Below are positions 10,137 to 62,004 of a stretch of DNA of 64,000 bases, one piece after another (position 1 is the first letter of the stretch; each line of letters begins with the position of its first letter). The stretch is taken from positions 81,754 to 145,753 of the forward strand of contig CAZOVH010000001.1 of the NCBI GenBank assembly GCA_964583675.1, read 5' to 3'. This stretch comes from an uncultured Candidatus Saccharibacteria bacterium. Its GTDB lineage: Bacteria > Patescibacteriota > Saccharimonadia > CAILAD01 > GCA-016700035. Made by a program: the position numbers and the translations under genes. A model generated the notes under the pieces. The model saw only the letters and a program-made list of their open reading frames with translations. It was not told the DNA's origin and searched no databases.

Positions 10137-10534
10137 TTATCAGATTTTTTCAAGTCTAAGCTGGCAGAATTTATGCAAAAGCGCTGCCCTGTCGTATCGC
10201 GCGGACCATCTTCAAATATATGCCCTAGATGCGCGCCACATTTACTGCACACCACCTCAGTGCGCGTCATGCCGTGACTTACATCTTCACGCACTTCAAC
10301 AGATCCAGGTACAGCTCGATCAAAACTCGGCCAACCAGAGCCAGATTCAAACTTGTGCTGGCTATCAAACAAAACCTGACCGCACACTTTACAGGTGTAA
10401 GTGCCATCGGTATGCTCATCCCAATATTTACCAGTAAATGGTGCTTCCGTACCAGCATTCTGCGTAATTTCAAACTCTTCCGAGGTTAACCGCTTTTTCA
10501 GTTCATCTTTATCTACCTGAAAACTATCAGCCAC
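10133..10534 (-). CDS. msrB: peptide-methionine (R)-S-oxide reductase
   Basis: 133 aa. SelR/MsrB zinc-ribbon CxxC pairs (CKVCGQ, CSKCGAHLGH). Confidence 0.85.
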   Translation of the reverse strand: MADSFQVDKDELKKRLTSEEFEITQNAGTEAPFTGKYWDEHTDGTYTCKVCGQVLFDSQHKFESGSGWPSFDRAVPGSVEVREDVSHGMTRTEVVCSKCGAHLGHIFEDGPRDTTGQRFCINSASLDLKKSDK

Positions 10535-12324
10535 TACTTTGCCTCCTGCAACTCATCCATCCATCCGCGGATAATTTCAAACCCACCACGCCAGAAGTCT
10601 TCGCTTTCGTAATCTATCCCAACTTCTTCTAGCACGAGCTTTGGATCACGCGCGCCACCAGCTGCTAAAATGGCCTCGATTTTTGGCACAAAACTCTCTC
10701 CTTCCTGCTTATACCGTGCGTACAGCGATAAGCTTAGAAGCTCACCAAAGTTATAGGCATAGCAATAGAACGGGGTGTGTACGATGTGCGGTATGTAGGA
10801 CCATTCGTGCTGGAAGATATCATCCACTTCAACAGAATCGCCAAACTGCTCACGTAACCCGTCGAGCCACAACTTTTGAATATCCACTAAGCTTGCCCCA
10901 TTTGGAATTGCTTCATGCGCGGCAATTTCAAACTTCACGAAATAGTTTTGCCGGGAAATTGTGGCGTAACTATCAGCTAACTTCTCTGCCAATAATGCTT
11001 TTTTCTCTACCGGGTCGGTAATTTTATCGAGTAGCGACTCAAAAAGCAGCATTTCACCAAACGTAGAGGCAGTTTCTGCCAAAGGTAAATTGGGGTGGTG
11101 CGAGCCTATCGGTAAATGCGCCGCATACATGTCGTGCACGCCGTGACCCAGCTCATGCGCTAATGTTGAGATATCGCGGCTTTTACCAGCAAAATTGAGC
11201 ATGACATACGGGGTCATAGAGGGCGTCACAGCTGCGCAGAAGGCCCCTCCGCGCTTTGTAGATGCCGGATGCGAGTCAATGTGCCTCTCGTCTAATATTT
11301 GGCGGGCTTTGGCCGCAAAATCAGCCGAATACTTCGAAAAGCTTTCCAGCACCAAATCAACTGCCTCGGCATAGCTATATTCCGATTTCGCTTCTGAGAG
11401 AGGCGCGTACAAATCGTAACGACTCAACTGACCTACTCCAAGTTCCCGGGCTTTCCAAGCAAAAAAGTCATGATATACACCCCTCTCCTCTTCACAGACC
11501 TTCATTAGCGATTCGATGGCCTTATCAGAAACCTGATTAGCAGCATTACGCATACCAATCGGGCTTGAATAGCCACGTAAGCCAGCTTCATAGGCCCAAT
11601 CTTTGACAATCGACTGGTAAACCTTAAAGAATTTATCTTCCTCGCGGATATAGGGTGCAAACAATGCTTGATATGTTGCCTTACGACGAGCTGCATCGGT
11701 GGAATACACTCCTGATTTTAACTCTTCGGCGGTTTCAAACTGCTCTGTTTTGCCATCCAGTTCGAGCTCAAAGGTAAAATCAGTCTCGATCATGTCACGT
11801 AAATCTGTCAGCGCGCTTGTGCCGGTAGCATCTTTGTGACTAATAATTGATTCTTCGGCCTGTGCGAGTGTGTGTCGAGCCATATCTCGCGCGTACGTCA
11901 GCGCGTACTCCATACCTTCTATGCAGGCAAAAAGCCGCTTAGCGTTCGCATCATCGAGCGTTTGCATGCCAGCTACTTCTTTACCCTTCAGCCACATCGA
12001 GATAGGACGCGACACCTCACGTAACCGTACCGCTAAATCTTGGGCACGTGGTTTGTCGCGCTTAGCTTCTTCGGATTTAGCGTCGGTAGATTCAGCGAGA
12101 CTCGGGCGAGAATACAGCAGCGTGAGTTTCTCAGATAACGCAAAGCTCCAAGCAAAATAGGCCTGAAAATCTGCTTCGCTCATATCTGGAGCAAGCTTTT
12201 TCTGCCACTCGGCATACTTTGGCATTTCAGCTTCAATTTCGGTATACAACGTATCAAATTTGCCATCCGGAAAAACGTCGTTTAAGTTCCAGTGGACTGC
12301 TTCAGTGGTGGTCTTTTTTGTCAT
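10534..12324 (-). CDS. pepF: oligoendopeptidase F (M3B family)
   Basis: 596 aa. HEXXH zinc motif HELGHGVH and M3 family architecture. Overlaps the msrB start by 1 nt. Confidence 0.85.
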   Translation of the reverse strand: MTKKTTTEAVHWNLNDVFPDGKFDTLYTEIEAEMPKYAEWQKKLAPDMSEADFQAYFAWSFALSEKLTLLYSRPSLAESTDAKSEEAKRDKPRAQDLAVRLREVSRPISMWLKGKEVAGMQTLDDANAKRLFACIEGMEYALTYARDMARHTLAQAEESIISHKDATGTSALTDLRDMIETDFTFELELDGKTEQFETAEELKSGVYSTDAARRKATYQALFAPYIREEDKFFKVYQSIVKDWAYEAGLRGYSSPIGMRNAANQVSDKAIESLMKVCEEERGVYHDFFAWKARELGVGQLSRYDLYAPLSEAKSEYSYAEAVDLVLESFSKYSADFAAKARQILDERHIDSHPASTKRGGAFCAAVTPSMTPYVMLNFAGKSRDISTLAHELGHGVHDMYAAHLPIGSHHPNLPLAETASTFGEMLLFESLLDKITDPVEKKALLAEKLADSYATISRQNYFVKFEIAAHEAIPNGASLVDIQKLWLDGLREQFGDSVEVDDIFQHEWSYIPHIVHTPFYCYAYNFGELLSLSLYARYKQEGESFVPKIEAILAAGGARDPKLVLEEVGIDYESEDFWRGGFEIIRGWMDELQEAK

Positions 12325-12768: not shown

Positions 12769-12809
12769 CATTACTAAAGCCAGGACCATTGGTCCTGGCT
12801 TTAGTAATG
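12769..12809. repeat. perfect 19-bp inverted repeat (hairpin) abutting the tRNA-Ser 3' end
   Basis: cattactaaagccaggacc-att-ggtcctggctttagtaatg, seen directly. The arm ends overlap the tRNA CCA. Confidence 0.6.
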
Positions 12810-12897
12810 GCGGAGAGAGAGGGATTCGAACCCTCGGTACGGTTTCCCGCACACACGCTTTCCAAGCGTGCTCCTTCAGCCACTCGGACACCTCTCC
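12808..12897 (-). tRNA. tRNA-Ser (anticodon GGA), class II with long variable arm
   Basis: The reverse complement reads GGAGAGGTGTCCGAGTGGCTGAAGG...CTTGGAAAG...GGGTTCGAATCCCTCTCTCTCCGCCA with CCA encoded. Confidence 0.8.
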
Positions 12898-12986: not shown

Positions 12987-14078
12987 CTAGGCCGCAGCCT
13001 TTTTGGTACAACCAACATCGACAAACGTGTCCAAGCGAATCAGTGGATACCGACTCACCTCAGACTGTTTGCTGATAGGAGTTCGCGCCAAGTGACAGGG
13101 CTGAAGCACTAGCACCACTTCTGCGCCATACCGCTGCAAGCGCTCTGCAAGCACCAGGTGATTGCGATAGTCATTGCCCACCAGGTAGACAACGGCTGGC
13201 AGCTTTGGATCGCGCTTAGGATCTGGCTTAACCTGACAGCGCGTCCAATCCGAGAGGATGTCGTCCACGTCGCCAATTCGATGCAATTCTTCGCGCTGGA
13301 CAGCCAGTGCCTTGCGCACACGGTGTGCCCGATCTATGAGTTGCACAGTCGGCACCACATACGGATCAGCCTGGACGTCACGTTCCCTACCAGGCCAATC
13401 GAGCTGGCTAGCGTAGGCCACTGCCAAATGCTCGCGCACTCGCTGAATGTACTCGGCTTGCCCCCGCTCAGCGAGCGAAATGTTTGACCAAGCACTGATC
13501 AGCAACTTTTCGAGCCAACTACGTGACTTCTTGAAACGAGTAAGCCGCGCCAAAAGAGGCAACACCACGCGCAACACCATCCTTGTGGGAAGGCTGTAGT
13601 GAATGGCGTACACCTTGGTGAGCGTGCGGGCCGACTCTCGAAGCGTTGACACTGCCGTGTCGGCAATGCAATCACACTGAGCATCACGGGAGGCATCGAG
13701 CTCACGAAGAGCGCGCTTCACCTCACCAATCGCTTGATAGCCACGCGTGCCGAGAGCCTCATCTAGGCCTCGCGACACAGCTACAAGATCGGACGGATAA
13801 TCGGCTGGTGGCTTGGTGAAAACCTTCCAACCAGAGCCCGTGAGCATGCTCTCAAAACGAACACGCCCCTCGGTTGGATCGTCCTGACCATGTGACTGCA
13901 GAAAAACTGCCGCCTTCGCCTTAAAGTCGTCAGTGCCGAGGCGCGTACGCGCGTCTTCCAACAGAGCGGCCTTCAGGGCGAAGTGGTCCAGCTTGGCCTC
14001 GCGACCAAAAAGCTTCCCCATCGTTACGAGGACATTGGGGCCATCAACCGCGATGATTGCTTGAGCGCGCATATTCAC
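12987..14078 (-). CDS. NYN/PIN-like domain protein (N-terminal predicted RNase domain, unknown C-terminal), high-GC
   Basis: 363 aa. N-terminus [19 protein letters not shown] resembles the NYN (LabA-like) domain. GC about 60%. Confidence 0.45.
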
Positions 14079-14161: not shown

Positions 14162-14383
14162 TCACTTGCGAGTAAGCAGAAAGGCTGCACCGGTCGCCAA
14201 CAGAAGTGCCACCAGAGTTTTGAGTGCTAATCCGAGACATGTTTGCGCCACTACATAGCCCACAGCCACACACTCGCCAGCACATGATCCTTGAGTTATG
14301 CACCATGCATACACCCCAAGTGCAACTAAAAATTCCGCCACAAGCGCCCCTATAAAAACTTTGCGGCGCACCGACTTCTTCAC
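14162..14383 (-). CDS. small 2-TM membrane protein (73 aa), translationally coupled to upstream gene
   Basis: Its start lies 3 nt after the stop of the 14386..15435 gene. Hydrophobic. Confidence 0.4.
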   Translation of the reverse strand: MKKSVRRKVFIGALVAEFLVALGVYAWCITQGSCAGECVAVGYVVAQTCLGLALKTLVALLLATGAAFLLTRK

Positions 14384-14385
14384 TC

Positions 14386-15435
14386 TTAACCGAGTTTCTT
14401 TTTTAGTTCCTCAACCAATGCAACAGGCGTAGGATCAATGCCATTTAAAATCCCCATGTACGAAGAAACATAATCACCAAGCAGAATTGTCCAGAGTAGT
14501 TGCTGGATGTGCGTTTGCCCCTCGGCATGCACCACAATTGGCTCAAAACCATGCTCTTTGAGGATTTCTTGCGTTATCGTAAACCGCTTTTGCACCCGAA
14601 CATGGTCTAAGCTCGATTGGAGCTGCACCGTTGCCACTGGCTTCTTTTCGGGAAATAGCCAACCCTGATATTCGTTGTGATTCAACTCAGGATAGACATT
14701 ACAAAATGCCAACTGCTTAGCATTCTCATTAATATCAATCTTCCACTTATAGGCTGCCGCGCGCAAAGCCGGACCAGCGTACATAACCCCTGGCTGGCCA
14801 TGTAAATGTCGCGCCAGCGCTAAAGCAATATTATCTTCATCCAAATTATCCAGGCTCAACTTAGATTTCTCGACATCAAGCCAATTGGCGGCATCTAAAA
14901 GCTCACGACGCACATCTAAATCACCAATCCAGCCAAGATCTGAGAATACGCAAGTTAGGGCCTTAAGACCAGCAAATGGCGAGAGTCGTGGCTGCGAAAC
15001 CTGTGGGAGTTCGAGCGTGAAATATTTCTTTGAGCGAGCGATCTCCAGGAGCTTTCCGCCAGCGGCCATAATAACTATGCGCGCCGAGCGCTTCTCTGCT
15101 TGTTCAAGTGCCGAGAGTGTCTCTTCGGTGTTACCCGAATAACTTGATGCTATAAAGAGCGTAGTTGGCCCAACATATTCTGGTATGTCGTAGCCACGCA
15201 CAATCTCGAGTGGTCGTGCCAAGCGCGAGCTCAGCCAGTTCTTGGCTATATCTGCCGCCAGGGCTGAACCGCCCATACCAGCTACAACAATATTTTCTAG
15301 CCCTTCTCCCCAGCTAGGTGTAATGTCGTCTGTCATGGAATCAGCAAAGTTAAGACGCAAATGCGATGGCTGCACGTCTACTGCATCAAAAATATGGTGT
15401 TTGTCGAGTTTTTCTAGGTGAGCAAAATCTTTCAT
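14386..15435 (-). CDS. bifunctional phosphoglucose/phosphomannose isomerase (SIS-domain, archaeal-type)
   Basis: 349 aa. SIS motifs (VVAGMGGSALAADIA, FIASSYSGNTEETL) and a PGI/PMI-type C-terminal domain. Confidence 0.7.
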   Translation of the reverse strand: MKDFAHLEKLDKHHIFDAVDVQPSHLRLNFADSMTDDITPSWGEGLENIVVAGMGGSALAADIAKNWLSSRLARPLEIVRGYDIPEYVGPTTLFIASSYSGNTEETLSALEQAEKRSARIVIMAAGGKLLEIARSKKYFTLELPQVSQPRLSPFAGLKALTCVFSDLGWIGDLDVRRELLDAANWLDVEKSKLSLDNLDEDNIALALARHLHGQPGVMYAGPALRAAAYKWKIDINENAKQLAFCNVYPELNHNEYQGWLFPEKKPVATVQLQSSLDHVRVQKRFTITQEILKEHGFEPIVVHAEGQTHIQQLLWTILLGDYVSSYMGILNGIDPTPVALVEELKKKLG

Positions 15436-15540
15436 ACCTAGATTATCGCCTTTTTTTATCTATCTGTCGAACAGGGTTAAACTTTGTCTTGCAAAAAACG
15501 TCAACGCGTTGTAACATATCGCACATCGGCACTTTTGTCG

Positions 15541-15546
15541 TATAAT
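15541..15546 (+). promoter_or_regulatory. -10 box TATAAT (within the recurring cgtataatc motif)
   Basis: Located 41-46 nt upstream of the GTG of 15587..16000 in low-GC DNA. Confidence 0.3.
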
Positions 15547-15586
15547 CAACACCCGTACCTACAACCAAGAAAGTTGAGGTGGTACC

Positions 15587-16000
15587 GTGCCCACACGGAC
15601 CATGACCCTCACGGAATGGCAGAACGAAGCTCGGCGGCGCACCGACTCGGTGATGAGAGGCGGACGAGCCAAGCCACTCGCCCTCCTCAACGTGCATGTC
15701 GAGAACAACCCAGAGCCTTGGCAGGCTCTGTGCTCGAAGGCCATCACGTTTGCCACCGCCTGCTTCAGGCAGCTCCAGCTGGGCTACGGCGAGGTGAACG
15801 GCACCACGCACTCCCGGCTGGGCAAGATGGTGCGCTACATCGACTCGCGTGCCGAGGACTGGCGCGGTGAGGCTGCCGAGCAGTACCGCGAGCTCCGCCA
15901 ACTGATCGGCGAGGTCGATCCCGAAGCGCTCCCCGGGCGCGACGAGATGGACCGGCAGCACCAGCTGCAGGACTGCGATCCGGCCGTGGCCATCGCCTGA
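15587..16000 (+). CDS. hypothetical protein (137 aa), high-GC island
   Basis: GTG start with SD GAGGTGG 5 nt upstream. Diverse composition. The antisense ORF 15443..16084 has Leu/Gly/Arg-rich junk composition. Confidence 0.5.
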   Translation: MPTRTMTLTEWQNEARRRTDSVMRGGRAKPLALLNVHVENNPEPWQALCSKAITFATACFRQLQLGYGEVNGTTHSRLGKMVRYIDSRAEDWRGEAAEQYRELRQLIGEVDPEALPGRDEMDRQHQLQDCDPAVAIA

Positions 16001-16016
16001 CCAAGAGGGTCTCACA

Positions 16017-16053
16017 CCCCGGTAGACAACGACGTCTACCGGGGTTTCGCTTG
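16017..16053 (+). terminator. intrinsic terminator (ccccggtagac-aacgac-gtctaccgggg + TTTCGCTTGTT)
   Basis: 11-bp GC stem plus a T-rich tail, 17 nt after the stop of the 15587..16000 gene. Confidence 0.55.
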
Positions 16054-16061
16054 TTGCAGTT

Positions 16062-16105
16062 TTACTAAAAAGAATAACCTCCAACGGGATAGGACCGTTG
16101 GAGGT
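16062..16105 (-). terminator. intrinsic terminator for the minus-strand operon (cctccaacgg-gatagga-ccgttggagg + U-run on minus)
   Basis: 10-bp stem. On the minus strand it is followed by TTATTCTTTTT, downstream of ORF 16126..16392. Confidence 0.45.
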
Positions 16106-16125
16106 CGGTGTAGATTTGTCCGGTT

Positions 16126-16392
16126 CTACTTCCGGTTGCGCGAGGGCTTGGGCGGATGCTTCCGCCTGTCCTGATGTGCCCAGGGGTGACGCACCTCACC
16201 GGGCTGGTAGTAGCACCAGCTGGAAGACCGCACCGACTTGGAGACTCGTGCCTCCGGGTCGGACAACTCGCTCCCCGTGCAGGACAGCTCATCGGAGCCA
16301 TCACGAGGACCCGCGAGGCCGGCCAGGTCGTAGTAGTCCTGCTCGAACTCGTCAGGCTCGGTGGCGGCAGGTCGGATCATGGTCTTGGGCAT
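16126..16392 (-). CDS. hypothetical acidic protein (88 aa), high-GC island
   Basis: SD AAGGGGGAAAG 4 nt upstream of the ATG. The N-terminal half is acidic (EPDEFEQDYYD). Confidence 0.4.
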   Translation of the reverse strand: MPKTMIRPAATEPDEFEQDYYDLAGLAGPRDGSDELSCTGSELSDPEARVSKSVRSSSWCYYQPGEVRHPWAHQDRRKHPPKPSRNRK

Positions 16393-16414
16393 TACTTTCC
16401 CCCTTGTGGGTCTA

Positions 16415-16903
16415 TCAGACGGCGGTCAGGACGGGCAGGTCGGCGTGCACCGGCACAGAGTCGGCGACAAGCAGCTTGGGCTGCTCAGCCACACGCTCGA
16501 TCATGGTGACGACGTCTCGGTAGACATCCATCTGCTGCCGCGTGAAGGGCACACGGCAGCGCATCAACGGCGCGATGAAGCGCCAGTTGTCGTCGTGCTG
16601 CAGCAACGTTCGCTGCTCGAGCTCGGCGTAGGACATCTGGGTGCGATACGTGTCGATCACATCGACGCGAGTTAGCACCCACTCGAACATGTCGTCCACG
16701 GAGACAAGCTCCGGACGAGTCTGTCCGTAGGCATCGAGCATGGCCACGATGGCACCGATGCCTCGCTGGCGATCGGTGTGATTCCCATCGCGCTGCAGCC
16801 AGCAGGACACATCGTTGCCGCGCGGCTCGACACCCTGATGCCGGACGAGTCGGAAGCGATGATCACGCAGGCCCTCCTCGAGGAAAGTCCAGAGCGTGTT
16901 CAT
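16415..16903 (-). CDS. hypothetical protein (about 163 aa; ORF open up to 17074), high-GC island
   Basis: ATG at 16903 (MNTLWTFLEEGLRDHRF...). Diverse composition. The start is uncertain. Confidence 0.4.
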   Translation of the reverse strand: MNTLWTFLEEGLRDHRFRLVRHQGVEPRGNDVSCWLQRDGNHTDRQRGIGAIVAMLDAYGQTRPELVSVDDMFEWVLTRVDVIDTYRTQMSYAELEQRTLLQHDDNWRFIAPLMRCRVPFTRQQMDVYRDVVTMIERVAEQPKLLVADSVPVHADLPVLTAV

Positions 16904-17198
16904 GTACCGACCGTTGACGTCAGGGTCCGTCAAGATGGCGGGGATGCGGGGGGATGGCGGAAGATTCACAGGGCTCCTGGGTTGATTGAAGGTGCGGGGA
17001 CAAAAAGAGAACGTATCGCGCGACACTGATGTGTTGCGGTATGCGCCCTCCCACAGAGTTCGTGTTTTCCTCACAAACTATCTGGGAGAGGACAAAGTGT
17101 TTGGATTGAGCCCGAGGGGCCGGAAGCAGGCGCAAGAGGCGCCCTTGTGGTCGAACCACAGCTCCGGCCCCTCAGCCACGCCCCAGCGAGTCAGAGGA

Positions 17199-18161
17199 TC
17201 ACTTCCTCTTCTTGGCCTTGGCGGTTCCGGCCACGGGCTTGCCGCGGACGGCAGCCTGCCCGGGGACACCCTGGGGGTTCGGCTTGCCCACCTTGATGCG
17301 GGCGTGCTTCTCCTCCCAGGTCGGACCCTGGGGCTGCGGAGCCGGCTTGGGCCCCTTGGCCTCGGACTCAGCGCGACGCGCCTCGGCCGCCTCTTCGCGA
17401 CGAGCCTGGCTCACCGACTGGGTGGCGTGGAGACTGGGCTCCAGGTTCTCCAGCACCGTCAGCAGACCACGCAAGGTGTCAGCCGGCAGCGTCTCAAGAC
17501 GCCGCAGCTGCTTCTGGCGGTTGGTCGGCATACGGTCGCTGAACCACTGAGTGTAGTCACCGCGGCCATCCTGGGTGAGGACGTGCATGATCTCCTTGCG
17601 GACACCATCCTCCTCGAGACGGATGGCCTCGAAACGGGCCTGTTCGGCGGCGCGGCTCTCGGCACGCTCGGCGTCGAGCTGGTCCATCGCGGCGCGGCCA
17701 GCCGGGGTGGGCTGGAAGTGCGGCGCGTAGGACAGAGCTGTGCGGACGACCTCGGTGTCGTCGTCGGTCAAGCCGACGTAGACCTCGATGTCGAGCTCCT
17801 CGTCGCCGGAGCTGACGCGGCCGTTGTTGATGGCCTGCGCGAAGCTCCGGGCGCGAGCCCTCTCCTTCACCGACAAGCCGTTCAGCCAGTCGGTGAAGAT
17901 CTCGGGCTTGTACTTGGCCACGAGGTCCTCGAACTTGTAGACGTTGTTGAGCGCGCCCTCGAGCTCCTCCCGGCTGCCGTTGAGGGCAGCCTGGAGCTCG
18001 TTCTTGAGGCGCGCCACCATCTTGTCCTGGTGGAACTCGCTGTCGAGGATGGCCTGAGCCAACTTGGCCAGGTGCGGCGTGGTCGCCTCGCTCCACTTGA
18101 ACTGGCGCGGGATGATCGGGGTGAACACGGGGGTCGGGTTGGTGGTCTCAGTCATGGTCAT
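17199..18161 (-). CDS. hypothetical protein (320 aa) with Lys/Ala/Pro-rich basic C-terminal tail, high-GC island
   Basis: ATG at 18161 with SD AGGAGGG upstream (MTMTETTNPTPV...). The C-terminus is ...KPVAGTAKAKKRK. The antisense 398-aa ORF is junk-like. Confidence 0.55.
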   Translation of the reverse strand: MTMTETTNPTPVFTPIIPRQFKWSEATTPHLAKLAQAILDSEFHQDKMVARLKNELQAALNGSREELEGALNNVYKFEDLVAKYKPEIFTDWLNGLSVKERARARSFAQAINNGRVSSGDEELDIEVYVGLTDDDTEVVRTALSYAPHFQPTPAGRAAMDQLDAERAESRAAEQARFEAIRLEEDGVRKEIMHVLTQDGRGDYTQWFSDRMPTNRQKQLRRLETLPADTLRGLLTVLENLEPSLHATQSVSQARREEAAEARRAESEAKGPKPAPQPQGPTWEEKHARIKVGKPNPQGVPGQAAVRGKPVAGTAKAKKRK

Positions 18162-18360
18162 TATGCCCTCCTGGGCTCTTGAAAAGGAGACCACCAACTG
18201 GCCTCCGGATACCTATTACCCTCGTCTGACACGCAAACTACAGGTAACCGGAGGCCTTATTTCCAAACACTTTGTCAAATAACAACTTGATAAAATCAGA
18301 TTACCAAGTCGCTATAGTATAGCAAATTATAGGCTTTTTGTCAATGTATTATGACAAGTT

Positions 18361-19317
18361 TTATTTGGAGAATAGCGGGAGCCCTTCAGGTTTAGCGCCG
18401 CCTACGGACCTAATCCGCATACTTCCATATCTGGCGCTATCTGGATCATGTTCCGGAATAATGCTCTGCTCTCCAGACAGAACATCCTGTGCCATCTGAC
18501 GAATTTCTTTTCTGAGTTGTAGAGACTCTAAATCGGGCGTATCTGGGCGAGTTGAGAGAATTTCTGCTCCAGCTCTCTGGGCTGCACTACCAGATAGCGA
18601 AGACTTCTCGGGATTAATTCCTGAAACTCCACGACCTGAGTCTGAGGACTTTTTATACCAAACAGGAATTTCAGATGGATAGCTATTTCCATAGCGATCT
18701 TCCCTGCGTCCAGCTTGCATCCAGGCAGCAGATTTAATGTGCGCATCTGGGAAAGCTCGCCTGAATATCTGATACGCCAACTCTTCTGTTGAGCCACTCA
18801 CACTCACCTCGTCTACTACTAAAAGATTTTTACCGGCCATATCTGGATATACTTGCTTCATGGTTTCGATGTAGCTATCGAATATACCCTCCTGTACCTG
18901 ACGAATCATCTGCTCGCGAGTCGGTCGGCCACCACCTGGCCCCTCGTTGGCATGCAAGTTAAGAAAATGCGTATCTGGCTTCTTCGCGCCCTCTTCTGGA
19001 AACACTTCCCACATCGCATCAGTTAACCAATATACTGGACGCGCCGATTTATCTAAATAAAATACTACGTCAGCAGAATCGTGCCCAGGCCCACTCTCAT
19101 CCGCAAACCCATGACGAATTCTGTCGATAAGTCGCTCGGTATTTTGCACATATTTCGCGCGCATACCCTCAGAATCACCTCGAGCGATAGTGTCTGTTGC
19201 AACCACCTGCTGCCTTTTCGTTATCATGTCTAAGTAATTTTCCGCAGTCAGAAGTTTAAATTCTATGCGCTTTTCTTTTTCGGCTGATGCCGGGCTTGGT
19301 CCTTTTTCCATAAGCAT
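18361..19317 (-). CDS. phosphoribosyltransferase (PRTase)-domain protein
   Basis: PRTase type-I motif LLVVDEVSVSGSTEE. Start assigned to the ATG at 19317 (MLMEKGPS...). The upstream in-frame extension looks non-coding. Confidence 0.45.
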   Translation of the reverse strand: MLMEKGPSPASAEKEKRIEFKLLTAENYLDMITKRQQVVATDTIARGDSEGMRAKYVQNTERLIDRIRHGFADESGPGHDSADVVFYLDKSARPVYWLTDAMWEVFPEEGAKKPDTHFLNLHANEGPGGGRPTREQMIRQVQEGIFDSYIETMKQVYPDMAGKNLLVVDEVSVSGSTEELAYQIFRRAFPDAHIKSAAWMQAGRREDRYGNSYPSEIPVWYKKSSDSGRGVSGINPEKSSLSGSAAQRAGAEILSTRPDTPDLESLQLRKEIRQMAQDVLSGEQSIIPEHDPDSARYGSMRIRSVGGAKPEGLPLFSK

Positions 19318-23782: not shown

Positions 23783-24370
23783 TCAGCCGCCGTAGTTGTC
23801 CTTGTCGGCGACGGATGTGGGAGATGAACCCGTGTTGTACACCAGCACCGGCTGGGTGGTCAGGTCCAGCGGGGCGTCGGCCAGCACGTACTCGCCGGGC
23901 CACTGGATCATCACACCGTCGGTGGTGAAGAAGAAGATGGCATCCTCCGAGGGACCCCAGGTGCCGTCGTCCATCGGCGCTTCGATGCCGATGAGCGACT
24001 TGCAGCCCGAGCCGCAGGAGTCGACGAGCTGGGTCGCTGTCGTCATCTGCGAGGAGGTGTTGCTCACCTTGCCCTTCACGGTGTAGTTGGCCATCAGCTG
24101 ACCCTGATCCGAGAACAGGTAGATGTAGCTGATCTTGTTCGGATCCGAGTAGCGGATGTGGCGCTCACGCAAGTTCATGCGCTCCAGCCAGCCGCCTTCC
24201 TCCATCTCTTCGAGGGGGTACGGGACGGCCTTCTCGGCGGCCTGGCTGTACTCCTCGGTGATGTTCTGGCTCTTCTCCTGCGTGGATGCCTCGTCTTCGC
24301 CGCTGCACGAGGCAGCGATGAGCACGAAGGGCAGGAAGAGCAGGATGAGGTACTTCTTGTACTTGGTCAT
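23783..24370 (-). CDS. lipoprotein (195 aa), high-GC
   Basis: Signal peptide and lipobox LIAASC. No recognisable domain. Confidence 0.5.
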   Translation of the reverse strand: MTKYKKYLILLFLPFVLIAASCSGEDEASTQEKSQNITEEYSQAAEKAVPYPLEEMEEGGWLERMNLRERHIRYSDPNKISYIYLFSDQGQLMANYTVKGKVSNTSSQMTTATQLVDSCGSGCKSLIGIEAPMDDGTWGPSEDAIFFFTTDGVMIQWPGEYVLADAPLDLTTQPVLVYNTGSSPTSVADKDNYGG

Positions 24371-24389
24371 GGTTGTCTTTCTTGCTGAT

Positions 24390-24414
24390 GGGAGGGGGTT
24401 CGAAACCCCCTCCC
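24390..24414. other. GC-rich hairpin (gggagggggtt-cgaa-accccctccc) in the 5' leader of the lipoprotein gene
   Basis: 10-bp G/C stem between ORFs 24447.. and 23783... There is no U-tract on either strand. Confidence 0.4.
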
Positions 24415-24446
24415 GGAGTGGTTGTTGAGTGGAGCTTGAAGTACGA

Positions 24447-24974
24447 TCAGGCTGCCGGCTGGCAGTCCGTCTCGCTGATGGTCGACATGGAGTCGATCTG
24501 ATACGGCAGGTCCGGGGACCGCCACTCGGCGCGGATGGTCTTCCGAGCTTCGGCGTTGTAGCTCGCGACGGCGTCCTGACAGATCTGCTGGAGACCGGTC
24601 ACCGTCGTCTGCTTACCCTTGAGTTGCTGTGTGTAGAGCTGCACCTGCACCAAGTCCGAGCTGGAGGGCTGCGGGTTGGTGGCGATGAACTCGTTCAGAT
24701 CGGCCTGTGCTTCGGTCAACTTGAGGTCCTGCGCCTTGATGGTGGCGTAGGTGTCCTCGAAGAAGGCCTGGGCACTGATCCGGTTGTCGGCATCATTGCG
24801 CTGCTGTACGATCTCGCCGGAGCCGCGCACGCCACTGGTGGCGACGCTGATGCCCCAGCCAGCGACTGACAGGATGATGACGGCCGCAATGAGGACCCAG
24901 ATCCACGTCTTGACGCGGCGAGGGGTCCATCGATTGATCTCGTCGTCCCACTTCTCTTCGATGGTTTTGGACAT
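24447..24974 (-). CDS. membrane-anchored hypothetical protein (176 aa), high-GC
   Basis: ATG at 24974 (MSKTIEEKWDDEINRWTPRRVKTWIWVLIAAVIILSVAGWG...) with SD GGGAG. One N-terminal TM. Confidence 0.5.
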   Translation of the reverse strand: MSKTIEEKWDDEINRWTPRRVKTWIWVLIAAVIILSVAGWGISVATSGVRGSGEIVQQRNDADNRISAQAFFEDTYATIKAQDLKLTEAQADLNEFIATNPQPSSSDLVQVQLYTQQLKGKQTTVTGLQQICQDAVASYNAEARKTIRAEWRSPDLPYQIDSMSTISETDCQPAA

Positions 24975-25369
24975 GTGTGGTTCACTCCCGAATTTTCGAG
25001 GTACTTCCAGTGAGTCGGTCACTGGCACCGTGAGGGTCATCCCCTCATGGTGAGTAACGGGAAGGCGATTAACCTTCGCACCATGAGGTGATGAGACCTT
25101 TAGTAAAAGCAACAAAGTATGGAGCTTGTTGCCACCCTGAGCGGTCCCGTTATCCGCTCATCACTCCGTTCGTTCATATCTGTCGTTTTCGGCGCTTGAT
25201 GAGAGGATAGGTTTGTCAGGGTAAGTAGACACAAAAATCCCGCTGGCCGCGGACCTAAGGCTTAGTCCAGGGCGAAACGGGATTTTCGATACCTATAGCG
25301 TATTAAGTTGTGAAATCAATATAGCAGTTCTACACTATGATGTCAATAGGCTTTGGCACTTTTTTATTA

Positions 25370-41801: not shown

Positions 41802-41874
41802 ACCCCCGTAGCTCAGCGGAAGAGCGTCCGATTCTTAACTCGGAAGGTCGCGAGATCAATACTCGCCGGGGGTG
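41802..41874 (+). tRNA. tRNA-Lys (anticodon CTT)
   Basis: Acceptor ACCCCCG/CGGGGGT and anticodon loop TTCTTAA. Unusual T-loop ATCAATA (A54). CCA is not encoded. Confidence 0.65.
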
Positions 41875-41900
41875 CAGGGCTAATGTGAGCCTTAATCACA

Positions 41901-42056: not shown

Positions 42057-42134
42057 GCGGGGGTAGCTCATGGGAGAGCAACTTGGGTGAAAGCCCGAGG
42101 AGGTACGTGGGTTCAAATCCCACCCCCTGCACCA
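42057..42134 (+). tRNA. tRNA-like gene with atypical 18-nt anticodon arm (identity unresolved; possibly Phe-like GAA with extra nucleotide, or pseudo-tRNA)
   Basis: Acceptor GCGGGGG/CCCCTGC, D-arm GCTCATGGGAGAGC, T-arm GTGGGTTCAAATCCCAC and ACCA encoded. The anticodon region CTTGGGTGAAAGCCCGAG is one nucleotide too long. Confidence 0.4.
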
Positions 42135-48929: not shown

Positions 48930-49790
48930 TTATCCCGTTATTACTCTGCCAATTAAACTAAATATCAGACTAACAGAAGCAACTCCAAGTAAGCCGATTA
49001 CCGCATACGTAATGATCTTACGGGCGGACTGAATAGATTGTGGGTTTCCAGCAGCGGTCATCATTCTTATACCACCAACAATTATCATCGTTACAGCCAG
49101 CGCGCCACCTATAAATTGTATGTACTGCCAAGCTGCCGCAATCAACTCAAGGATGGTGTTTTGATCAAAGTTATTGAGATCTACCCCTAAAAAGCGTCCT
49201 CCGCCAGTCACACCAATAAGATCGAGCGTTACGCGGGCTGCAAAGAAGAGCGCAATGCTCGAAGCGGCCAACGTAATACGTTTCTTGCCAGCCTTAAGTG
49301 CTTCTGGCGATGCACCACCGGTAATAACCTGCACCATGCCAAGCCCAATCATAATCGCAAAGACAATTACGCCAATATTCAAAATATAGTTTGTGAGATT
49401 TTCTACTATTGACTGAATCGCAGTCTGGTCATTGCCTCCAGTACACAGAGTAGACACAAAGCCACTACTAATAATTTGCCCATCAGCCTTAATGTCGTTA
49501 CACGTACCCTTAACAGACTGTGGGTTGTTGAGTCGCTCATTTTCGGCATTCGTACTTGTGCCATTACCAACTGGCTCGCTCCGAGCTGGACCTTTCGTTC
49601 CTGGAGGGAGATTCTCAGAACATACCAGCGCACCATCAGCGCCTTCTTTATATGTTCCGGCGGCTCCACCCGTCAAAGTACAGGGCTGTCCAGCTAGCTT
49701 TGCAGGGTCGGCATATGCCACTGGCGCAGTATATATATGTAGGGCGAGAAGGAGAGTGGCTGGCAATAAGTACGCAAGGCGGCTTTTCAT
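48930..49790 (-). CDS. secreted Cys-containing domain fused to two VirB2-like pilin units (286 aa)
   Basis: Signal peptide, an extracellular domain of about 120 aa with 4 Cys, then two pilin-like TM hairpin units (KKRITLAASSIALFF..., ARKIITYAVIGLLGVASVSLIF). Confidence 0.5.
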   Translation of the reverse strand: MKSRLAYLLPATLLLALHIYTAPVAYADPAKLAGQPCTLTGGAAGTYKEGADGALVCSENLPPGTKGPARSEPVGNGTSTNAENERLNNPQSVKGTCNDIKADGQIISSGFVSTLCTGGNDQTAIQSIVENLTNYILNIGVIVFAIMIGLGMVQVITGGASPEALKAGKKRITLAASSIALFFAARVTLDLIGVTGGGRFLGVDLNNFDQNTILELIAAAWQYIQFIGGALAVTMIIVGGIRMMTAAGNPQSIQSARKIITYAVIGLLGVASVSLIFSLIGRVITG

Positions 49791-49832
49791 GTCCCTTATT
49801 ATAAGCGGGTTTGGTATAATTTCGGTAGGGTA

Positions 49833-52800
49833 ATGAATATTCTTTCCAAAAAACTGAATATATTTCAGCAGGGGGCGCTGTTTGGCGCTGTTTTTTTCCT
49901 TTTATTTTTAGTTTCTATTTTAGTTGCGCCATCAGCGAAAGCAGGACCAAATAGCCCTACTGAATATGAAGGGTCTGATTCTACTCAATGCCAGTGGGTG
50001 GCCGACTCAAAAATTGTCTGCGGTACAGGGGAGTGGTGGTTTGATATTAATCAATCAGTATCTCTTGGCTATCCGGTATATAAAAGTTCTGACACCTCTA
50101 ATTCGTACATAGTTTTTGATAGCAATGGTGAAAATGGTGAGCTCACAAAAGACCCTGCTCAAAAAACAAACGGGACTGATGCATTTTTAGGAGAAAAACA
50201 GGTACGTAATAATCGCCTGTGGGCAAATGACGACAACTCTAGCGACCCAGTTGATAACGGCATGAGTGCACCACCTAACGGTGAGCATTATTATTGTGGC
50301 CTAAAATCCAAGACTGAAGAGGAATGCTTCGATGGGAGGGGCGGCTCACTTATAAAAGTCACTCAAGATCAGGGCGATAAAATTACGGCCATGCGCGATC
50401 AAATAGAAGAAACAATAGGTTCAGAAGAAGATTGCACAGAAGATGCAGGCTCATTAGGTTTTGTACTGTGTCCAATACTGAGCACCACACGCAATGCGGT
50501 TGGTGCACTCATTGGAGACGGAACGGGTAAAGGGTTTCTAGTCGAACTACTTACTATAAGACCCTTAAGCTCCACGAATACGCCAGAGCTCTACAATGGG
50601 TGGCAGGCTGTAAGAAATATTGCATTAGGCCTATACATTTTAGTCTTTGTATTAATTATTTTTGGTAACGGTATTGGCTATGACCCCTACACGATTAAGA
50701 GAGCGCTGCCTCGACTGGCAGCCGGCGTTGTTTTAACATTTGCCTCTTGGTGGATCATGCAAACACTTGTAGATCTATCAAACCTTGTAGGCAATGTTAT
50801 CCCCGCATTTGTGGCACAGATTTCAGGTAATGCCGGAATTGCAGACTACGCAATCGACCTAAACCCTGCCCTTGCCTTGAGCTCCGTAATCCTCCTAATT
50901 GTGGTTGCTTTTATCGCCCTTGGAGCCTTGCTAGTTGGTCTTGCCGGTTTAATTATGCGCATCGTGATTATTTATGCTCTCGTACTTTTAGCCCCTGTCG
51001 CGTTTATTGCCTGGGTACTCCCAAACACAGAAGGCCTCTTTAAGAAGTGGTGGAAAAACCTTATTAAGGTACTCATGATGTTCCCGATAGTTACAGGCAT
51101 GCTCTCTCTTTCATTGTTCTTCCAGACCATCCTACTCAATACGCAAACAGACGCTGCTGGCAACAGTAATGGATTAGGAGGGTCAGCCTCCAACTCGGTA
51201 ACCGGTATTGTTGGTATGCTTGCACCACTCATAGCAATTATCATGATCCCTAAAACCTTTAAATGGGGCGGTGAAGCCTTTGCTGCAGCAGCTGGATATA
51301 TGGCAGGAAAGGCAAGTGGAGTTGCAGGTAAAATATCTGATGCACCCAAAACAATCGGAGGCAAAGCTGCAGGTAGTGCAAAAGAACGTATGCTCGCAAG
51401 CGACAAAACTGCTGCCCTCACTGGCGCAATGGCCTCTAGTCGATTGGGTCGACTTGCGGGCGGTAAAGCCGCCATGAGATCAAGTGGTAGAGCAAGAAGC
51501 AGGGTTATTGGCGAGGCAGAAAGCCTAACAAAGAATATGACAAACGACCAGCTTGAAAAGATCGCTAAAACCGGCACACAAGAAGAGAGAATTGCCGCAA
51601 TTGGCCAGCTCGCAAAACGCAAGGATAGAGGTAAGCTCGCCTCCTTATCGCAGGCAGGCGGTAAAACTGCAAGAGCTTATGACGAAGCTAGTAGTAGGCA
51701 TGCTGGTGAGTTTGGAGGCAATGCTGACCTGCGCCGCATCGGCGGTAAATTCACGAACGTTGGAGACATGTCTACCGAAGATGCGGCCGGAATGAATGCA
51801 GACGGTTTCGCCGCAGGACTCGCAACAGGTGCAATATCTCACGCCACTGCGCAAGCAATCTACAATAATGACCGTACCCGAGCATCTCTTTCGCCTCAAA
51901 AACTACATGACCTTACAACATATTTATCATCTGGAGGAACAACCGACAAGGATGGAAATAGAATTACAGTACAAGGCAGAAACTCTCGCGTTGCCGATGC
52001 AAAAATAGAAGCAACCACTCCTAGTTACAATGCAGAAGGCAAGCATGTCGGCCAGAGAGTTACGTTTAAGGGTGATTCTGAATTACAAAATGCCCTCAAT
52101 GTAGCTGGATCAAATCGAGGCGTAACCACCACATCTGCTAGTGGTACTCCTCAGCCCACAGCAACTACCGCTCCAGCACGTCCAGCTCCACCACCACCTC
52201 CACCATCAGGAGGAACTCCAACTTATACTACCCCTGCGGGCGCACCAACCTACACAACAACGGGTACGCCAGTTCCACCACCACCAAGTGGCAATGTGCC
52301 AGTTTGGAGCAATCCAACTGCACCACCACCTCCGCCGCCAAGCGGTAGCACTGGTGGAACACCTCCGCCTTACACAGGCCCAGCTGCGCCATGGCAGCCG
52401 GCTCCCGGTTCGCAAACACCGCCTCCACCACCAAGTGGAGGGGCACCTACCGGCACGAACGGTGGAGGCACAGTCATAAACAATGTCACCAACGAAAATT
52501 CAACGACGAATAACAACTCGACCACCAACAACGTAAAAACCGTTCTCAACAACAACGGCATACCAAGTTCGATTGCGCTTGGTGCAGCCACACAGCTTGG
52601 AAGTGCCAAAAATCGCTTCGGAGCAGGATCAGCCGAACACGACGGCCTAGCCGGCATTGAAAGTAAGCTCAATGATCTGGGTCGTATGATTCAGTCCGGA
52701 TCACTCAGTCAAACTCGATTGCGAGAAAATATCCGTGACATCCACCGCGATATTGATGACCTACCACCAGGTGCACATGACCAACAAGATAACCTACGTG

Positions 52801-52847
52801 GCGTCCTCACAAACATCGAGCGCAATGCCACCGACGACGAGGCGTAA
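49833..52847 (+). CDS. VirB6/TrbL/PrgH-like polytopic T4SS channel protein with long Pro-rich and Asn/Thr-rich C-terminal extension (1004 aa)
   Basis: Signal peptide, an extracellular Cys-containing domain of about 250 aa, at least 6 TM helices (residues about 270-480), then a disordered tail with PPPPPSG repeats. Confidence 0.55.
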   Translation: MNILSKKLNIFQQGALFGAVFFLLFLVSILVAPSAKAGPNSPTEYEGSDSTQCQWVADSKIVCGTGEWWFDINQSVSLGYPVYKSSDTSNSYIVFDSNGENGELTKDPAQKTNGTDAFLGEKQVRNNRLWANDDNSSDPVDNGMSAPPNGEHYYCGLKSKTEEECFDGRGGSLIKVTQDQGDKITAMRDQIEETIGSEEDCTEDAGSLGFVLCPILSTTRNAVGALIGDGTGKGFLVELLTIRPLSSTNTPELYNGWQAVRNIALGLYILVFVLIIFGNGIGYDPYTIKRALPRLAAGVVLTFASWWIMQTLVDLSNLVGNVIPAFVAQISGNAGIADYAIDLNPALALSSVILLIVVAFIALGALLVGLAGLIMRIVIIYALVLLAPVAFIAWVLPNTEGLFKKWWKNLIKVLMMFPIVTGMLSLSLFFQTILLNTQTDAAGNSNGLGGSASNSVTGIVGMLAPLIAIIMIPKTFKWGGEAFAAAAGYMAGKASGVAGKISDAPKTIGGKAAGSAKERMLASDKTAALTGAMASSRLGRLAGGKAAMRSSGRARSRVIGEAESLTKNMTNDQLEKIAKTGTQEERIAAIGQLAKRKDRGKLASLSQAGGKTARAYDEASSRHAGEFGGNADLRRIGGKFTNVGDMSTEDAAGMNADGFAAGLATGAISHATAQAIYNNDRTRASLSPQKLHDLTTYLSSGGTTDKDGNRITVQGRNSRVADAKIEATTPSYNAEGKHVGQRVTFKGDSELQNALNVAGSNRGVTTTSASGTPQPTATTAPARPAPPPPPPSGGTPTYTTPAGAPTYTTTGTPVPPPPSGNVPVWSNPTAPPPPPPSGSTGGTPPPYTGPAAPWQPAPGSQTPPPPPSGGAPTGTNGGGTVINNVTNENSTTNNNSTTNNVKTVLNNNGIPSSIALGAATQLGSAKNRFGAGSAEHDGLAGIESKLNDLGRMIQSGSLSQTRLRENIRDIHRDIDDLPPGAHDQQDNLRGVLTNIERNATDDEA

Positions 52848-52849
52848 TT

Positions 52850-60076: not shown

Positions 60077-60079
60077 CGC

Positions 60080-61990: not shown

Positions 61991-62004
61991 AAAGAAAGGG
62001 AACT

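Follow-up and report, generated by a model that had tools for sequence, protein, structure and literature searches.

Does a sharply bounded, GC-rich patch of orphan genes in a Candidatus Saccharibacteria chromosome represent DNA recently imported from another organism, or a locus that its own lineage has long kept? We addressed this question in a 64-kb stretch of such a chromosome (64,000 nucleotides (nt); hereafter, the window), in which three genes, D, C and B, follow one another on the minus strand and face a fourth, convergent gene, A, on the plus strand. Saccharibacteria and other Patescibacteria are abundant and obligately host-dependent, and most of their lineage-specific genes are unannotated. 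To our knowledge, almost nothing is known about gene regulation in Patescibacteria.

We lean towards reading the block as a vertically inherited locus of one Saccharibacteria group, in which conserved RNA elements bracket an exchangeable D gene, rather than as a recent import. A first-pass annotation of the same DNA had proposed a novel module without annotatable genes, and this part stood; the recent import implied by its word ‘island’ and the resemblance to actinobacterial nucleoid proteins did not. The most informative features of the locus are non-coding, and neither the RNA structures nor the swapping of D had been part of that annotation. Coordinates of all features are collected in Table 1, and related loci are denoted by L numbers.

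Complementary boxes and RNA structures around gene D

We aligned the sequences on either side of D, first for six lineages and later for nine to eleven. The non-coding regions flanking D contain long stretches that are invariant across the aligned lineages. In the 5′ untranslated region (UTR), identity to the window was 0.80 for L015, 0.70 for L017 and 0.64 for L009, and in the spacer between D and C it was 0.75, 0.73 and 0.60, respectively. These values are similar to those of the coding sequence of the neighboring gene pgi (0.77, 0.68 and 0.69), and D-coding DNA was identical only at the level expected of unrelated GC-rich sequence. Judged by these alignments, conservation is stronger in the non-coding parts than in the proteins.

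The 5′ UTR of D and the region downstream of its stop codon each contain a 15-nt box, and the two boxes form a perfect inverted repeat (I5) whose arms lie 1156 nt apart and are the only copies in the window. A rough calculation puts the number of such pairs expected by chance in 3.2 kb at about 0.005. In all 11 lineages, the 14 core pairs of the resulting helix can form, giving a length of 14–17 bp, and 8 of its 17 pairs have changed on both sides. Pairing was found in 90.9% of alignment cells, compared with 30–48% when the partner was slid by 1–3 columns, and none of 500 shuffles reached the observed covariation score. The boxes vary by lineage as GTG/CAC or ACG/CGT, and L009 adds a GA-to-AT change matched by TC-to-AT. 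In L028, box 1 has drifted to GACAAAACATATGTATG and its partner follows over 17 positions with one G-U pair, which argues for base pairing rather than a fixed protein-binding word, and the G-U pair points to RNA. The helix persists in loci that lack C and B (L025 and, probably, L026 and L028), so that it would serve D itself rather than the boundary between D and C.

Exact inverted repeats that flank a gene and stay identical through concerted changes could also act in DNA, either as inversion sites for phase variation of D or as operators for a looping regulator, perhaps A. Box 1 lies just downstream of the promoter, and most lineages carry an internal, operator-like palindrome, CAAA-N3-TTTG. 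In addition, 186 of the 187 cells are Watson-Crick pairs or are unpaired at the helix ends, leaving a single G-U, whereas the other helices of the locus are rich in G-U pairs. However, D has the same orientation to its promoter in all ~25 assembled contigs, which represent many lineages and samples. Among the neighbors scanned with Pfam (hyp363, pgi, hyp382, the tetratricopeptide repeat (TPR) proteins and A–D; the open reading frame (ORF) at 14162–14383 was left out, and groEL was recognized from the gene calls of related contigs), none had a recombinase or helix-turn-helix domain. L028 has lost the palindromic word, yet its boxes remain complementary, and the boxes are embedded among covarying, strand-specific RNA structures. 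We regard an action in DNA as unlikely and favor, from these sequence comparisons, pairing at the RNA level.

Three further helices are predicted in the leader of D. The transcription start was placed from the −10 box only, and the hairpin at or next to it shows compensatory changes in the consensus, with different stems in L009, L019 and L023. Hairpin 2 carries compensatory changes in L009, L015 and L017 (e.g., CG:3 UA:3) and was also found in the remote loci L027, L028 and L029. Stem 3 is a perfect 12-nt inverted repeat (I21) that appears in the minimum free energy (MFE) fold of the leader and encloses the ribosome-binding site (RBS) AGGAGGG (18172..18166), a GCCC/GGGC hairpin (18176..18165) and the ATG (18161). 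It is predicted in all eight aligned lineages, with pairs that are invariant or G-U. The N-terminus MTxTETT is kept even in D proteins of the unrelated second type described below, presumably because codons 5–8 form part of stem 3. As a whole, the 188-nt leader folds with z = −6.2 relative to shuffled sequences.

The 241 nt from the D stop codon to the C start, which include a Y-shaped three-way junction, fold with z = −4.1 relative to shuffles. Across nine lineages, RNAalifold reported compensatory changes in 15 of the 44 pairs of the Y element and hairpin 4, including CG:5 UA:4 and CG:6 UA:2 in hairpin 4 (columns 134–185). A covariance model of the Y element found a single copy in the window, with a score of 90 bits on the D strand compared with 28 on the other. 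Rfam gave no match other than tRNAs at the gathering threshold in the window and only chance-level matches (E of 1.6 or more) on 15400–18400. In L019 and L021, a different structured 3′ element, GGCCGGGGAGG...CTCCCCGGTC, replaces the Y element, and in L029 the same element stands in tandem with the Y element, upstream of box 2.

Two other interpretations of these elements were discarded. Neither the Y element nor the box is a genome-wide repeat, as both are single-copy per site within the window, and an attC/integron reading of the 3′ element was dropped on inspection only, there being no integrase and no core-site consensus. A metagenome scan with a conserved word of the 3′ UTR yielded only three further loci, and the viral contigs scanned contained none. 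In one of these three, L020 (SXGT01689583.1, 1014–1036), the 23-nt word occurs with a third central variant, CAAACGGTTTGTCC, and the flanks are unrelated and rich in ORFs with Ser repeats. The match may have arisen by chance or mark a very distant relative; because its context differs, L020 was left out of the analysis.

Exchange of D and the properties of its cargo

The D slot holds two families, type 1 and type 2, between which homology was undetectable and was rejected (hhalign probability only 34%). Type 1 occurs in the window, L013, L022 and L009 and in the remote members P0030–P0038, and type 2 occurs in L015, L017, L019, L021, L023 and L025. In a pgi tree, the type-1 locus of the window is nested among the type-2 loci L025 (PGI identity 92%), L015 (89%) and L023 (87%), and the type-1 locus L009 groups with the type-2 locus L017, so that both deep clades contain both types. 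On this tree, the distribution of D requires at least two replacements, or a long-lived polymorphism moved by recombination. B is exchanged as well: alleles of 88 and 75 amino acids (aa) occur on contigs with identical D, with ~190 central nt replaced. The swapping of D and B suggests homologous recombination by way of the conserved flanks, together with pressure to diversify.

What stays constant is the RNA scaffold, together with A and a D-type cargo. Even the remote loci L026 and L029 have a convergent gene resembling A, and in L028 a convergent gene of similar size takes that position. In L025, C and B have been precisely lost while the terminator and the RNA elements were kept, and both genes are also absent from the remote loci L026 and L028. 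In the GTDB representative metagenome-assembled genome (MAG), L014, a masked run of N lies inside D (10523–10623); an apparent 146-nt insertion in this D, seen by tblastn, proved to be this masked run and thus a database artefact.

The type-1 D protein belongs to a small family, with 11 relatives in a database of 5.8 billion proteins and 12 members found by profile search among 1.84 billion representatives. Its AlphaFold2 (AF2) model is all alpha-helical (predicted local distance difference test (pLDDT) 81, predicted template-modeling score (pTM) 0.44), with residues 288–320 below pLDDT 50 and presumed disordered. The tail, residues 271–320, has a net charge of +10. The first-pass annotation had described this tail as basic and Lys/Ala/Pro-rich; it is not of low complexity but the best-conserved part of the family, a single non-repetitive motif (PTWxEKHAxxxxGKPNPQGVPGxxxxRGxxVAGAGKGTKEK). 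Remote type-1 members carry the same C-terminal motif fused to varied N-terminal parts, and when six-frame translations of the window and the related loci were searched with a profile of the tail, D was the sole match. D type 1, D type 2 and B have a common layout: the body is acidic (net −7 to −8), and the C-terminal part, formed in D by the disordered tail, carries a net charge of +8 to +11. This layout suggests that all three need to bind either a polyanion or some conserved partner. The D tail in particular is compatible with binding of a conserved partner or of nucleic acid, and weakly compatible with a secretion signal.

A related proposal, at the level of function and compatible with the RNA architecture, is that D and perhaps B are substrates of a type IV secretion system (T4SS) recognized through their basic, disordered C-termini, that A or C, both small and acidic, are chaperones or immunity proteins, and that the swapping reflects an arms race with the host. 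The charge layout would fit this proposal, as would the hypervariability of D and B and the varied N-terminal parts fused to one C-terminal motif. The window itself contains a monoderm-type T4SS cluster 30 kb from the block. Such clusters are typical of Patescibacteria, in which T4SS is widespread, with no specific substrates named in the paper cited (PMC12102498). The cluster also includes cell-wall hydrolases; two of its large proteins have 1138 aa with a VanY domain and 636 aa with GDSL lipase, phage-tail lysozyme and M23 peptidase domains. Its VirB4/TraG-like protein is the only secretion ATPase found among the scanned large ORFs of the window. However, the tail motif is carried by a single protein in the window and in each locus, and by only about 12 among the 1.84 billion representatives, which is not the behavior of a general secretion signal common to several effectors. 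There is no linkage to T4SS genes, the proteins carry no toxin or enzyme domain and none of a known effector, and basic tails fit nucleic-acid binding equally well. We therefore give this proposal little weight.

Still less probable, in our view, is a toxin-antitoxin-like or effector-immunity-like partnership of C and B inside the D operon, with C as the globular member and B as a variable neutralizer. The two genes are adjacent, co-oriented and 22 nt apart, they were lost together by the precise deletion in L025, and they are both missing from L026 and L028. C evolves under strong purifying selection, and B is nearly unconstrained and allelic. However, neither protein matches a known toxin, antitoxin or immunity family, and an order with the large gene first is less common.

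Distribution, age and composition of the block

We next consider where the block occurs. The exact D protein was found on eight metagenomic contigs with the same neighbors, and the sole match in a GTDB search of 185,579 species genomes was a Ca. Saccharibacteria MAG. No relatives outside the Saccharibacteria group were found in the 5.8 billion proteins, the 1.84 billion representatives or the 185,579 GTDB genomes, and phage and plasmid collections searched with blastn and tblastn gave no match to the block. In every longer contig with a relative, the gene order is groES-groEL – TPR protein(s) – (variable gene) – D – [C – B] – A (convergent) – pgi. This order recurs in about a dozen lineages (L009, L013–L019, L022–L025 and L029), whose identity to the window spans 86–98% for GroEL and 65–97% for PGI. 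Between L009 and the window, identity is 86% for GroEL and 69% for PGI, and 38%, 28% and 33% for D, C and A, respectively.

The GC-rich patch extends over 15550–18200 with 62–70% GC, against ~49% for the Candidatus Saccharibacteria chromosome and ~0.49 for the window overall. Its edges are sharp: in 200-nt windows, the GC fraction rises from 0.41 (15400–15599) to 0.56–0.73 (15500–18199) and returns to 0.41 (18200–18399). The ~65% GC island of the first description is thus borne out. The excess sits almost wholly in third codon positions, GC1 and GC2 being ordinary. GC at third positions (GC3) is 0.85 in A, 0.82 in B, 0.81 in C and 0.89 in D, compared with 0.43–0.49 in pgi, groEL, hyp382 and pgm, and it is equally extreme at only one other site in the 64 kb (23783–25115). 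The related blocks also exceed their surroundings in GC (0.63 vs ~0.51 in L009, 0.64 vs 0.52 in L015 and 0.61 vs 0.55 in L017), and D has a GC3 of 0.87–0.92 in L019, L022, L023, L025 and L029. Because the block keeps the same position and stays GC3-rich in divergent lineages, any acquisition would be older than the splits between them, and the base composition has since shown no decay.

Synonymous sites behave differently in the block and in its flanks. Between the window and L013, the synonymous rate (dS) was 0.93 for pgi, 0.75 for hyp382, 0.83 for groEL and 0.57 and 1.73 for the TPR genes, but 0.37 for A, 0.23 for D and 0.14 for C. Differences at 4-fold sites agree (0.40–0.54 in the five flanking genes, 0.10–0.29 in A, D and C), so that the synonymous sites of the block change 2.5–6 times more slowly than those of the flanking genes. 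In contrast, the nonsynonymous rates (dN) of D (0.097) and A (0.13) are 5–8 times those of pgi and groEL (0.016–0.018). This unusual combination of fast protein change and slow synonymous change could have one of three causes, namely selection on synonymous sites, biased gene conversion or a younger ancestor of the block. Against L009, dS is still lower in the block (0.74 for D and 1.18 for C, vs 2.57 for groEL), and this persistence favors a standing force.

These data bear directly on the earlier reading of the block as a recent import from a high-GC source, an actinobacterial host or actinophage, with the 320-aa D protein as a histone-like protein by virtue of its Lys/Ala/Pro tail. The GC and GC3 of the block do resemble a genome of ~65–70% GC, and cultivated Saccharibacteria live on Actinobacteria. 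The tail of D is basic and predicted to be disordered. However, the pgi-adjacent place and the high GC3 are held in common by all ~12 lineages, down to 86% GroEL identity, and the synonymous sites are not decaying towards the composition of the host chromosome. A search for the block in Actinobacteria, phages and plasmids, which the first description had called for in the former two, returned no homologue. The resemblance of the tail to those of actinobacterial nucleoid or histone-like proteins did not hold up either: Bac_DNA_binding (HU), Lsr2 and histone H1-like models of Pfam and NCBIfam gave no match in D even at E up to 0.1–1, and the tail lacks PAKKA-type repeats. A recent import is largely refuted, and we consider this reading as a whole highly improbable.

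Coding potential and protein features

The nonsynonymous-to-synonymous ratio (dN/dS) is below 1 for all four genes, spanning 0.08–0.72 among close relatives. In the frames of A–D, GC decreases in the order GC3 > GC1 > GC2, relatives differ mostly at third positions, and indels between D homologues preserve the frame. RBSs precede the starts of D, C and A. Because of the codon-position GC, the in-frame indels and the dN/dS values, all four ORFs are, by these measures, genuine coding genes, and the four ORFs and their convergent layout stand as first described. That the ORFs are artefacts of GC-rich non-coding or antisense DNA is scarcely credible: long antisense ORFs do occur across the patch, as the first-pass annotation had cautioned, but one candidate for the real gene instead, a 398-aa ORF (16986–18182, plus strand), has a GC1 of 0.83 and a GC3 of 0.67, unlike A–D, and the confidently helical model of D joins the measures above in refuting this idea.

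None of the four proteins had an obvious domain at the outset, and this was confirmed in every library searched. A, B, C and D, as well as the versions in L009, L015, L019 and L023, had no match in Pfam, PHROGs, PADLOC or NCBIfam; the few hits that did appear lay below threshold and were taken as noise (A with WXG100, D with Mce4_CUP1, C with SigZ and D type 2 with Cmr5). Profile searches of PDB sequences with alignments of A, C and D gave nothing below E = 0.01. Foldseek, proposed earlier as a check, was run on the D and A models and found no fold match for D in PDB or BFVD (best E 1.2 and 0.36) or for A in PDB (best E 2.5). With no domains, no fold match for D and A, and a D-C-B operon facing A, the label of a candidate novel module stands.

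A has 14 homologues at 54–97% identity in the 5.8-billion-protein database, with a dN/dS of 0.29–0.36, and its GTG start at 15587 agrees with the relatives. Its AF2 model is a bundle of four long helices (best model pLDDT 77, pTM 0.73). The WXG100 models of Pfam (PF06013; 15.0 bits, cut-off 27.3, E = 0.031) and NCBIfam (TIGR03930; 14.3 bits, cut-off 44.85) align to the same 35 residues of A, both below the family cut-off. In the AF2 model, W92-R-G94 lies in the turn between helices 72–87 and 95–110. The W-x-G is kept in most relatives, including P0019 (WSG), and is replaced in L009 (SFDAE), P0020 (TMNDK) and P0028 (WND). No FtsK/SpoIIIE domain, as in type VII ATPases, was found among the scanned large ORFs of the window. 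The N-terminal ‘MTLxEWQ’ of A had prompted a MazG-like reading, which was dropped, as neither profile nor fold supported it.

C is the most constrained protein of the block (dN/dS 0.08–0.21), although it is missing from some lineages. It has only three close homologues among the 5.8 billion proteins, and it matched neither a family nor a PDB sequence. Its start, first placed at ATG 16903, was corrected to GTG 16969, which is used by the gene calls in eight contigs. The additional N-terminus comprises the 22 residues IPAILTDPDVNGRY, whose pattern IPAxLxDPDVNGRY is kept in homologues, even in loci where C identity is only 18–29%. D has a dN/dS of 0.41 and B one of 0.5–0.7. The N-terminal half of B has a net charge of −8 and its C-terminal half one of +8, and its relatives have a PDEFEPD...DPPxRxPKRxR motif in common.

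Promoters and terminators

The promoter of the D-C-B operon matches 11 of 12 scan positions, and both hexamers are kept in all aligned lineages. The scan found no promoter-like site between D and C, nor any on the plus strand of 15300–18500, where, being consensus-based, it could miss a weak promoter. For A, the pair TTGCAA-17-TAACAT scores 8/12 and so falls under the scan threshold, but it keeps its position and spacing in all eight aligned loci, with variants such as TTGCAT-17-TATGAT in L009 and TTGATT-17-TAACAT in L017. It sits 24–52 nt upstream of the TATAAT box (15541–15546) within the ‘cgtataatc’ previously taken as the promoter of the plus-strand gene. That box occurs only in the lineage of the window, with TATACC, TAACGT or CATGTC in relatives. 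The conserved pair is thus probably the promoter of A, and the TATAAT probably a chance occurrence. A small hairpin in the A leader varies compensatorily in its stem, as CGGC/GCCG and, in L025, CGGCAA/TTGCCG, as judged from alignment inspection only.

Both transcription units end in hairpins that face each other. The terminator scan was overall no better than chance (three found vs 2.4 expected), and it missed that of A, which has T in only 4 of the 8 following bases. The A hairpin is nevertheless kept in nine loci with compensatory changes in its outer stem and G-U wobbles in L015, L023 and L025, and the D-C-B terminator is kept with covariation in relatives. The face-to-face terminators of the first description are therefore retained. 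As read from these alignments, the wobble pairs show selection at the RNA level.

Two observations were made beside these signals. At the 3′ end of B (16100–16135, minus strand), the last codons and the following bases, CCGGAAGTAGAACCGGACAAATCTACAC, are kept at the DNA level although L015 reads the stretch in another frame, ending in ...PGSRTG. This conservation suggests an RNA or DNA element overlapping the gene end, and its motif GTAGA...TCTAC recurs in the stem of the A terminator. Upstream of pgi, a conserved promoter-like pair, TCGACA-17-GATAAT (15442–15470, minus strand), ends 7 nt before the ATG (start 15435), so that the pgi mRNA may be leaderless or nearly so.

Table 1. Features of the locus and their coordinates in the window
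Feature	Position	Strand	Description
Promoter of A	15489..15517	+	TTGCAA (15489–15494), 17-nt spacer, TAACAT (15512–15517); probable
Hairpin in A leader	15527..15540	+	Small, CGGCA-CTTT-TGTCG
Gene A	15587..16000	+	137 aa; GTG start behind GAGGTGG; in every lineage seen
Terminator hairpin of A	16016..16045	+	Perfect 12-bp stem ACCCCGGTAGAC / GTCTACCGGGGT, then TTCGCTTGTT; inverted repeat I16
D-C-B intrinsic terminator	16076..16106	-	12-bp stem, then ATTCTTTTTA; called by scan
Gene B	16126..16392	-	88 aa; small, Pro-rich (11% Pro), hypervariable
Gene C	16415..16969	-	184 aa; GTG start at 16969 after AGGAG RBS
3′ UTR hairpin 4	17043..17090	-	CCTCTCCCAGA ... TCTGTGGGAGGG; directly downstream of box 2; in MFE fold of the window sequence
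Box 2	17091..17105	-	TCCAAACACTTTGTC; exact reverse complement of box 1
Y-shaped three-way junction	17106..17179	-	Directly 3′ of the D stop codon
Gene D (type 1)	17199..18161	-	320 aa; acidic all-helical body (1–270) and tail (271–320)
Stem 3	18138..18198	-	12 bp; GTTGGTGGTCTC (18198..18187) predicted to pair with GAGACCACCAAC (18149..18138, D codons 5–8)
5′ UTR hairpin 2	18200..18256	-	15-bp stem GGCCTCCGGTTACCT / AGGTATCCGGAGGCC, 27-nt loop; inverted repeat I6
Box 1	18262..18276	-	GACAAAGTGTTTGGA; in D 5′ UTR; predicted to pair with box 2, closing the transcript around the D ORF
5′-terminal hairpin	18282..18312	-	12-bp stem at or next to the putative transcription start; in MFE and centroid folds
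Promoter of D-C-B operon	18316..18344	-	TTGACA-17-TATACT, upstream TG; in AT-rich DNA outside the patch
T4SS cluster	48930–62793		T4SS pilin, 1004-aa orphan, PrgI (VirB3-like), VirB4/TraG-like ATPase; GC3 0.38–0.50

Other features of the window

The second patch of extreme GC3 (23783–25115, minus strand) contains a 195-aa ORF with a GC3 of 0.90 and a 222-aa ORF with a GC3 of 0.78. The former is lipoprotein-like, with a signal peptide ending in LIAASCSG, and the latter has one predicted membrane helix. Both lack Pfam domains and are poorly kept in relatives (L014 retains only fragments).

A 363-aa orphan of moderately raised GC (12987–14078, minus strand; GC 0.57, GC3 0.61) adjoins tRNA-Ser(gga) (12808–12897). 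Its position beside pgi is kept in relatives, although it is only 30% identical in L009. Its N-terminus may resemble the start of NYN/LabA-like nuclease domains, a likeness that has no profile support.

Two tRNA-like genes on the plus strand (41802–41875 and 42057–42134) have four-base anticodons (ctta and gaaa) and no amino acid according to ARAGORN, and score as tRNA in Rfam with 54.6 and 43.2 bits, respectively.

A model of the locus

In the reading that we prefer, a vertically inherited locus with conserved RNA bookends and an exchangeable D, a sigma-70-type promoter in AT-rich DNA would drive D and then C and B where these are present, and A would be transcribed convergently from its own conserved promoter, both units ending at the facing terminators. 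As conservation and covariation show, the conserved core is the RNA bracketing the D ORF (the bookends) more than the proteins. The D mRNA may be long-lived but translationally closed until it is opened or cleaved. The opening could be the work of a helicase or of a protein such as A, and the cleavage an RNase III-type cut in the long-range helix. D ORFs would be exchanged between the bookends by homologous recombination through the conserved flanks. The extreme GC3 would be actively maintained, because the synonymous sites of the block change so much more slowly than those of its flanks, either by selection on mRNA structure or stability or by GC-biased gene conversion at a recombination hot spot. 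Our best guess for the function is a role in conflict or in the interaction between epibiont and host.

Several points weigh against this reading. The covariation comes from ~11 related lineages and thus from few independent events, and stem 3 shows no double changes, its evidence being invariance and G-U pairs only. The long-range helix is strictly Watson-Crick but for its single G-U, unlike the other helices, and it is possible that the boxes are inverted repeats acting at the DNA level. The transcription start, the co-transcription of D, C and B, the stability of the mRNA and the gating of its translation are all inferred from sequence. The low dS could reflect a recent spread of the block between lineages. 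Finally, no homologue, fold match or informative neighbor accounts for the function of the proteins, and confidence in the fold of A is moderate and inconsistent, the remaining four AF2 models scoring only 53–59.

A more specific joint version goes further. Here the locus would be a novel closed-loop, translationally masked mRNA scaffold, made of the 5′ hairpin, a lock on the RBS and start codon, the 3′ Y element and the helix between the 5′ and 3′ UTRs. The scaffold would be conserved in its own right and act as a docking frame, into which recombination swaps unrelated ORFs for proteins with acidic helical bodies and basic tails. The GC3 of ~85–90% of this cargo would be selected at the RNA level, and A would open or read the scaffold. 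The cargo proteins would be variable factors for interaction or conflict, and the epibiont might deliver them to its host. We put this combination forward only tentatively, as a rather improbable whole.

The locus offers a testable case of elaborate post-transcriptional architecture in this phylum, with a covarying helix between two UTRs that is absent from Rfam. The exchange of unrelated genes between RNA bookends is a hallmark of conflict-driven diversification. The block adds four protein families, or five with D type 2, that have no sequence relative, and D type 1 and A have no structural relative. Its extreme GC3 and suppressed synonymous change bear on the question of mRNA selection versus biased gene conversion in reduced genomes. 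If the cargo acts on the host, the cargo proteins would be candidate mediators of epibiosis; if the locus is only a regulated housekeeping oddity, its interest would be limited to a new RNA motif and orphan families.

Comparison with known systems

Several known systems resemble parts of the locus. Like invertons and shufflons, D is flanked by short perfect inverted repeats that evolve in concert and lie just downstream of a fixed promoter. It differs from them in having one orientation in the ~25 assembled contigs, no recombinase in the scanned neighbors, and a G-U-type mismatch in the repeat of one lineage.

Among proteins, A recalls WXG100/ESAT-6 members in that its model has a helix-turn-helix hairpin with W-R-G in the turn. 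However, it scores far below the cut-offs, the W-x-G is replaced in L009, P0020 and P0028, no type VII ATPase was seen among the scanned large ORFs of the window, and it has ~50 extra N-terminal residues and forms a four-helix bundle. The D tail is Lys-, Ala-, Pro- and Gly-rich, positive and disordered, like the tails of HupB/MDP1 and Hlp. D differs from these proteins in lacking an HU fold and tandem PAKKA/AAKK-type repeats, its tail being one conserved motif with Trp, His and Pro-Gly positions. T4SS substrates with small acidic chaperones, such as VirE2/VirE1, also combine features seen here, namely an acidic body with a positive unstructured tail, small acidic proteins nearby and a T4SS in the genome, but the D motif occurs on one protein per genome fragment, and there is no homology to a known substrate or chaperone.

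At the RNA level, the processing stems cut by RNase III in 16S and 23S rRNA precursors and in early mRNAs of phage T7 likewise consist of distant complementary sequences enclosing a unit. Here the unit is a protein-coding ORF in a chromosomal operon. The predicted helix around D is shorter (14–17 bp) than the classical substrates of 20 bp or more, although within the size range of a minimal substrate.

The fold-back inhibition of hok-type mRNAs offers a further parallel. D encodes a soluble helical protein of 250–475 aa rather than a small membrane toxin (<~60 aa), the consensus scan found no promoter for an antisense RNA opposite its leader, and there is no relation by sequence or in Rfam. 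In hok-type designs, the mRNA is stable but translationally inert until processed; for D, stability and processing are predictions. The likeness lies in the architecture, as the D mRNA would combine a long-range helix between its 5′ and 3′ regions with a sequestered RBS.

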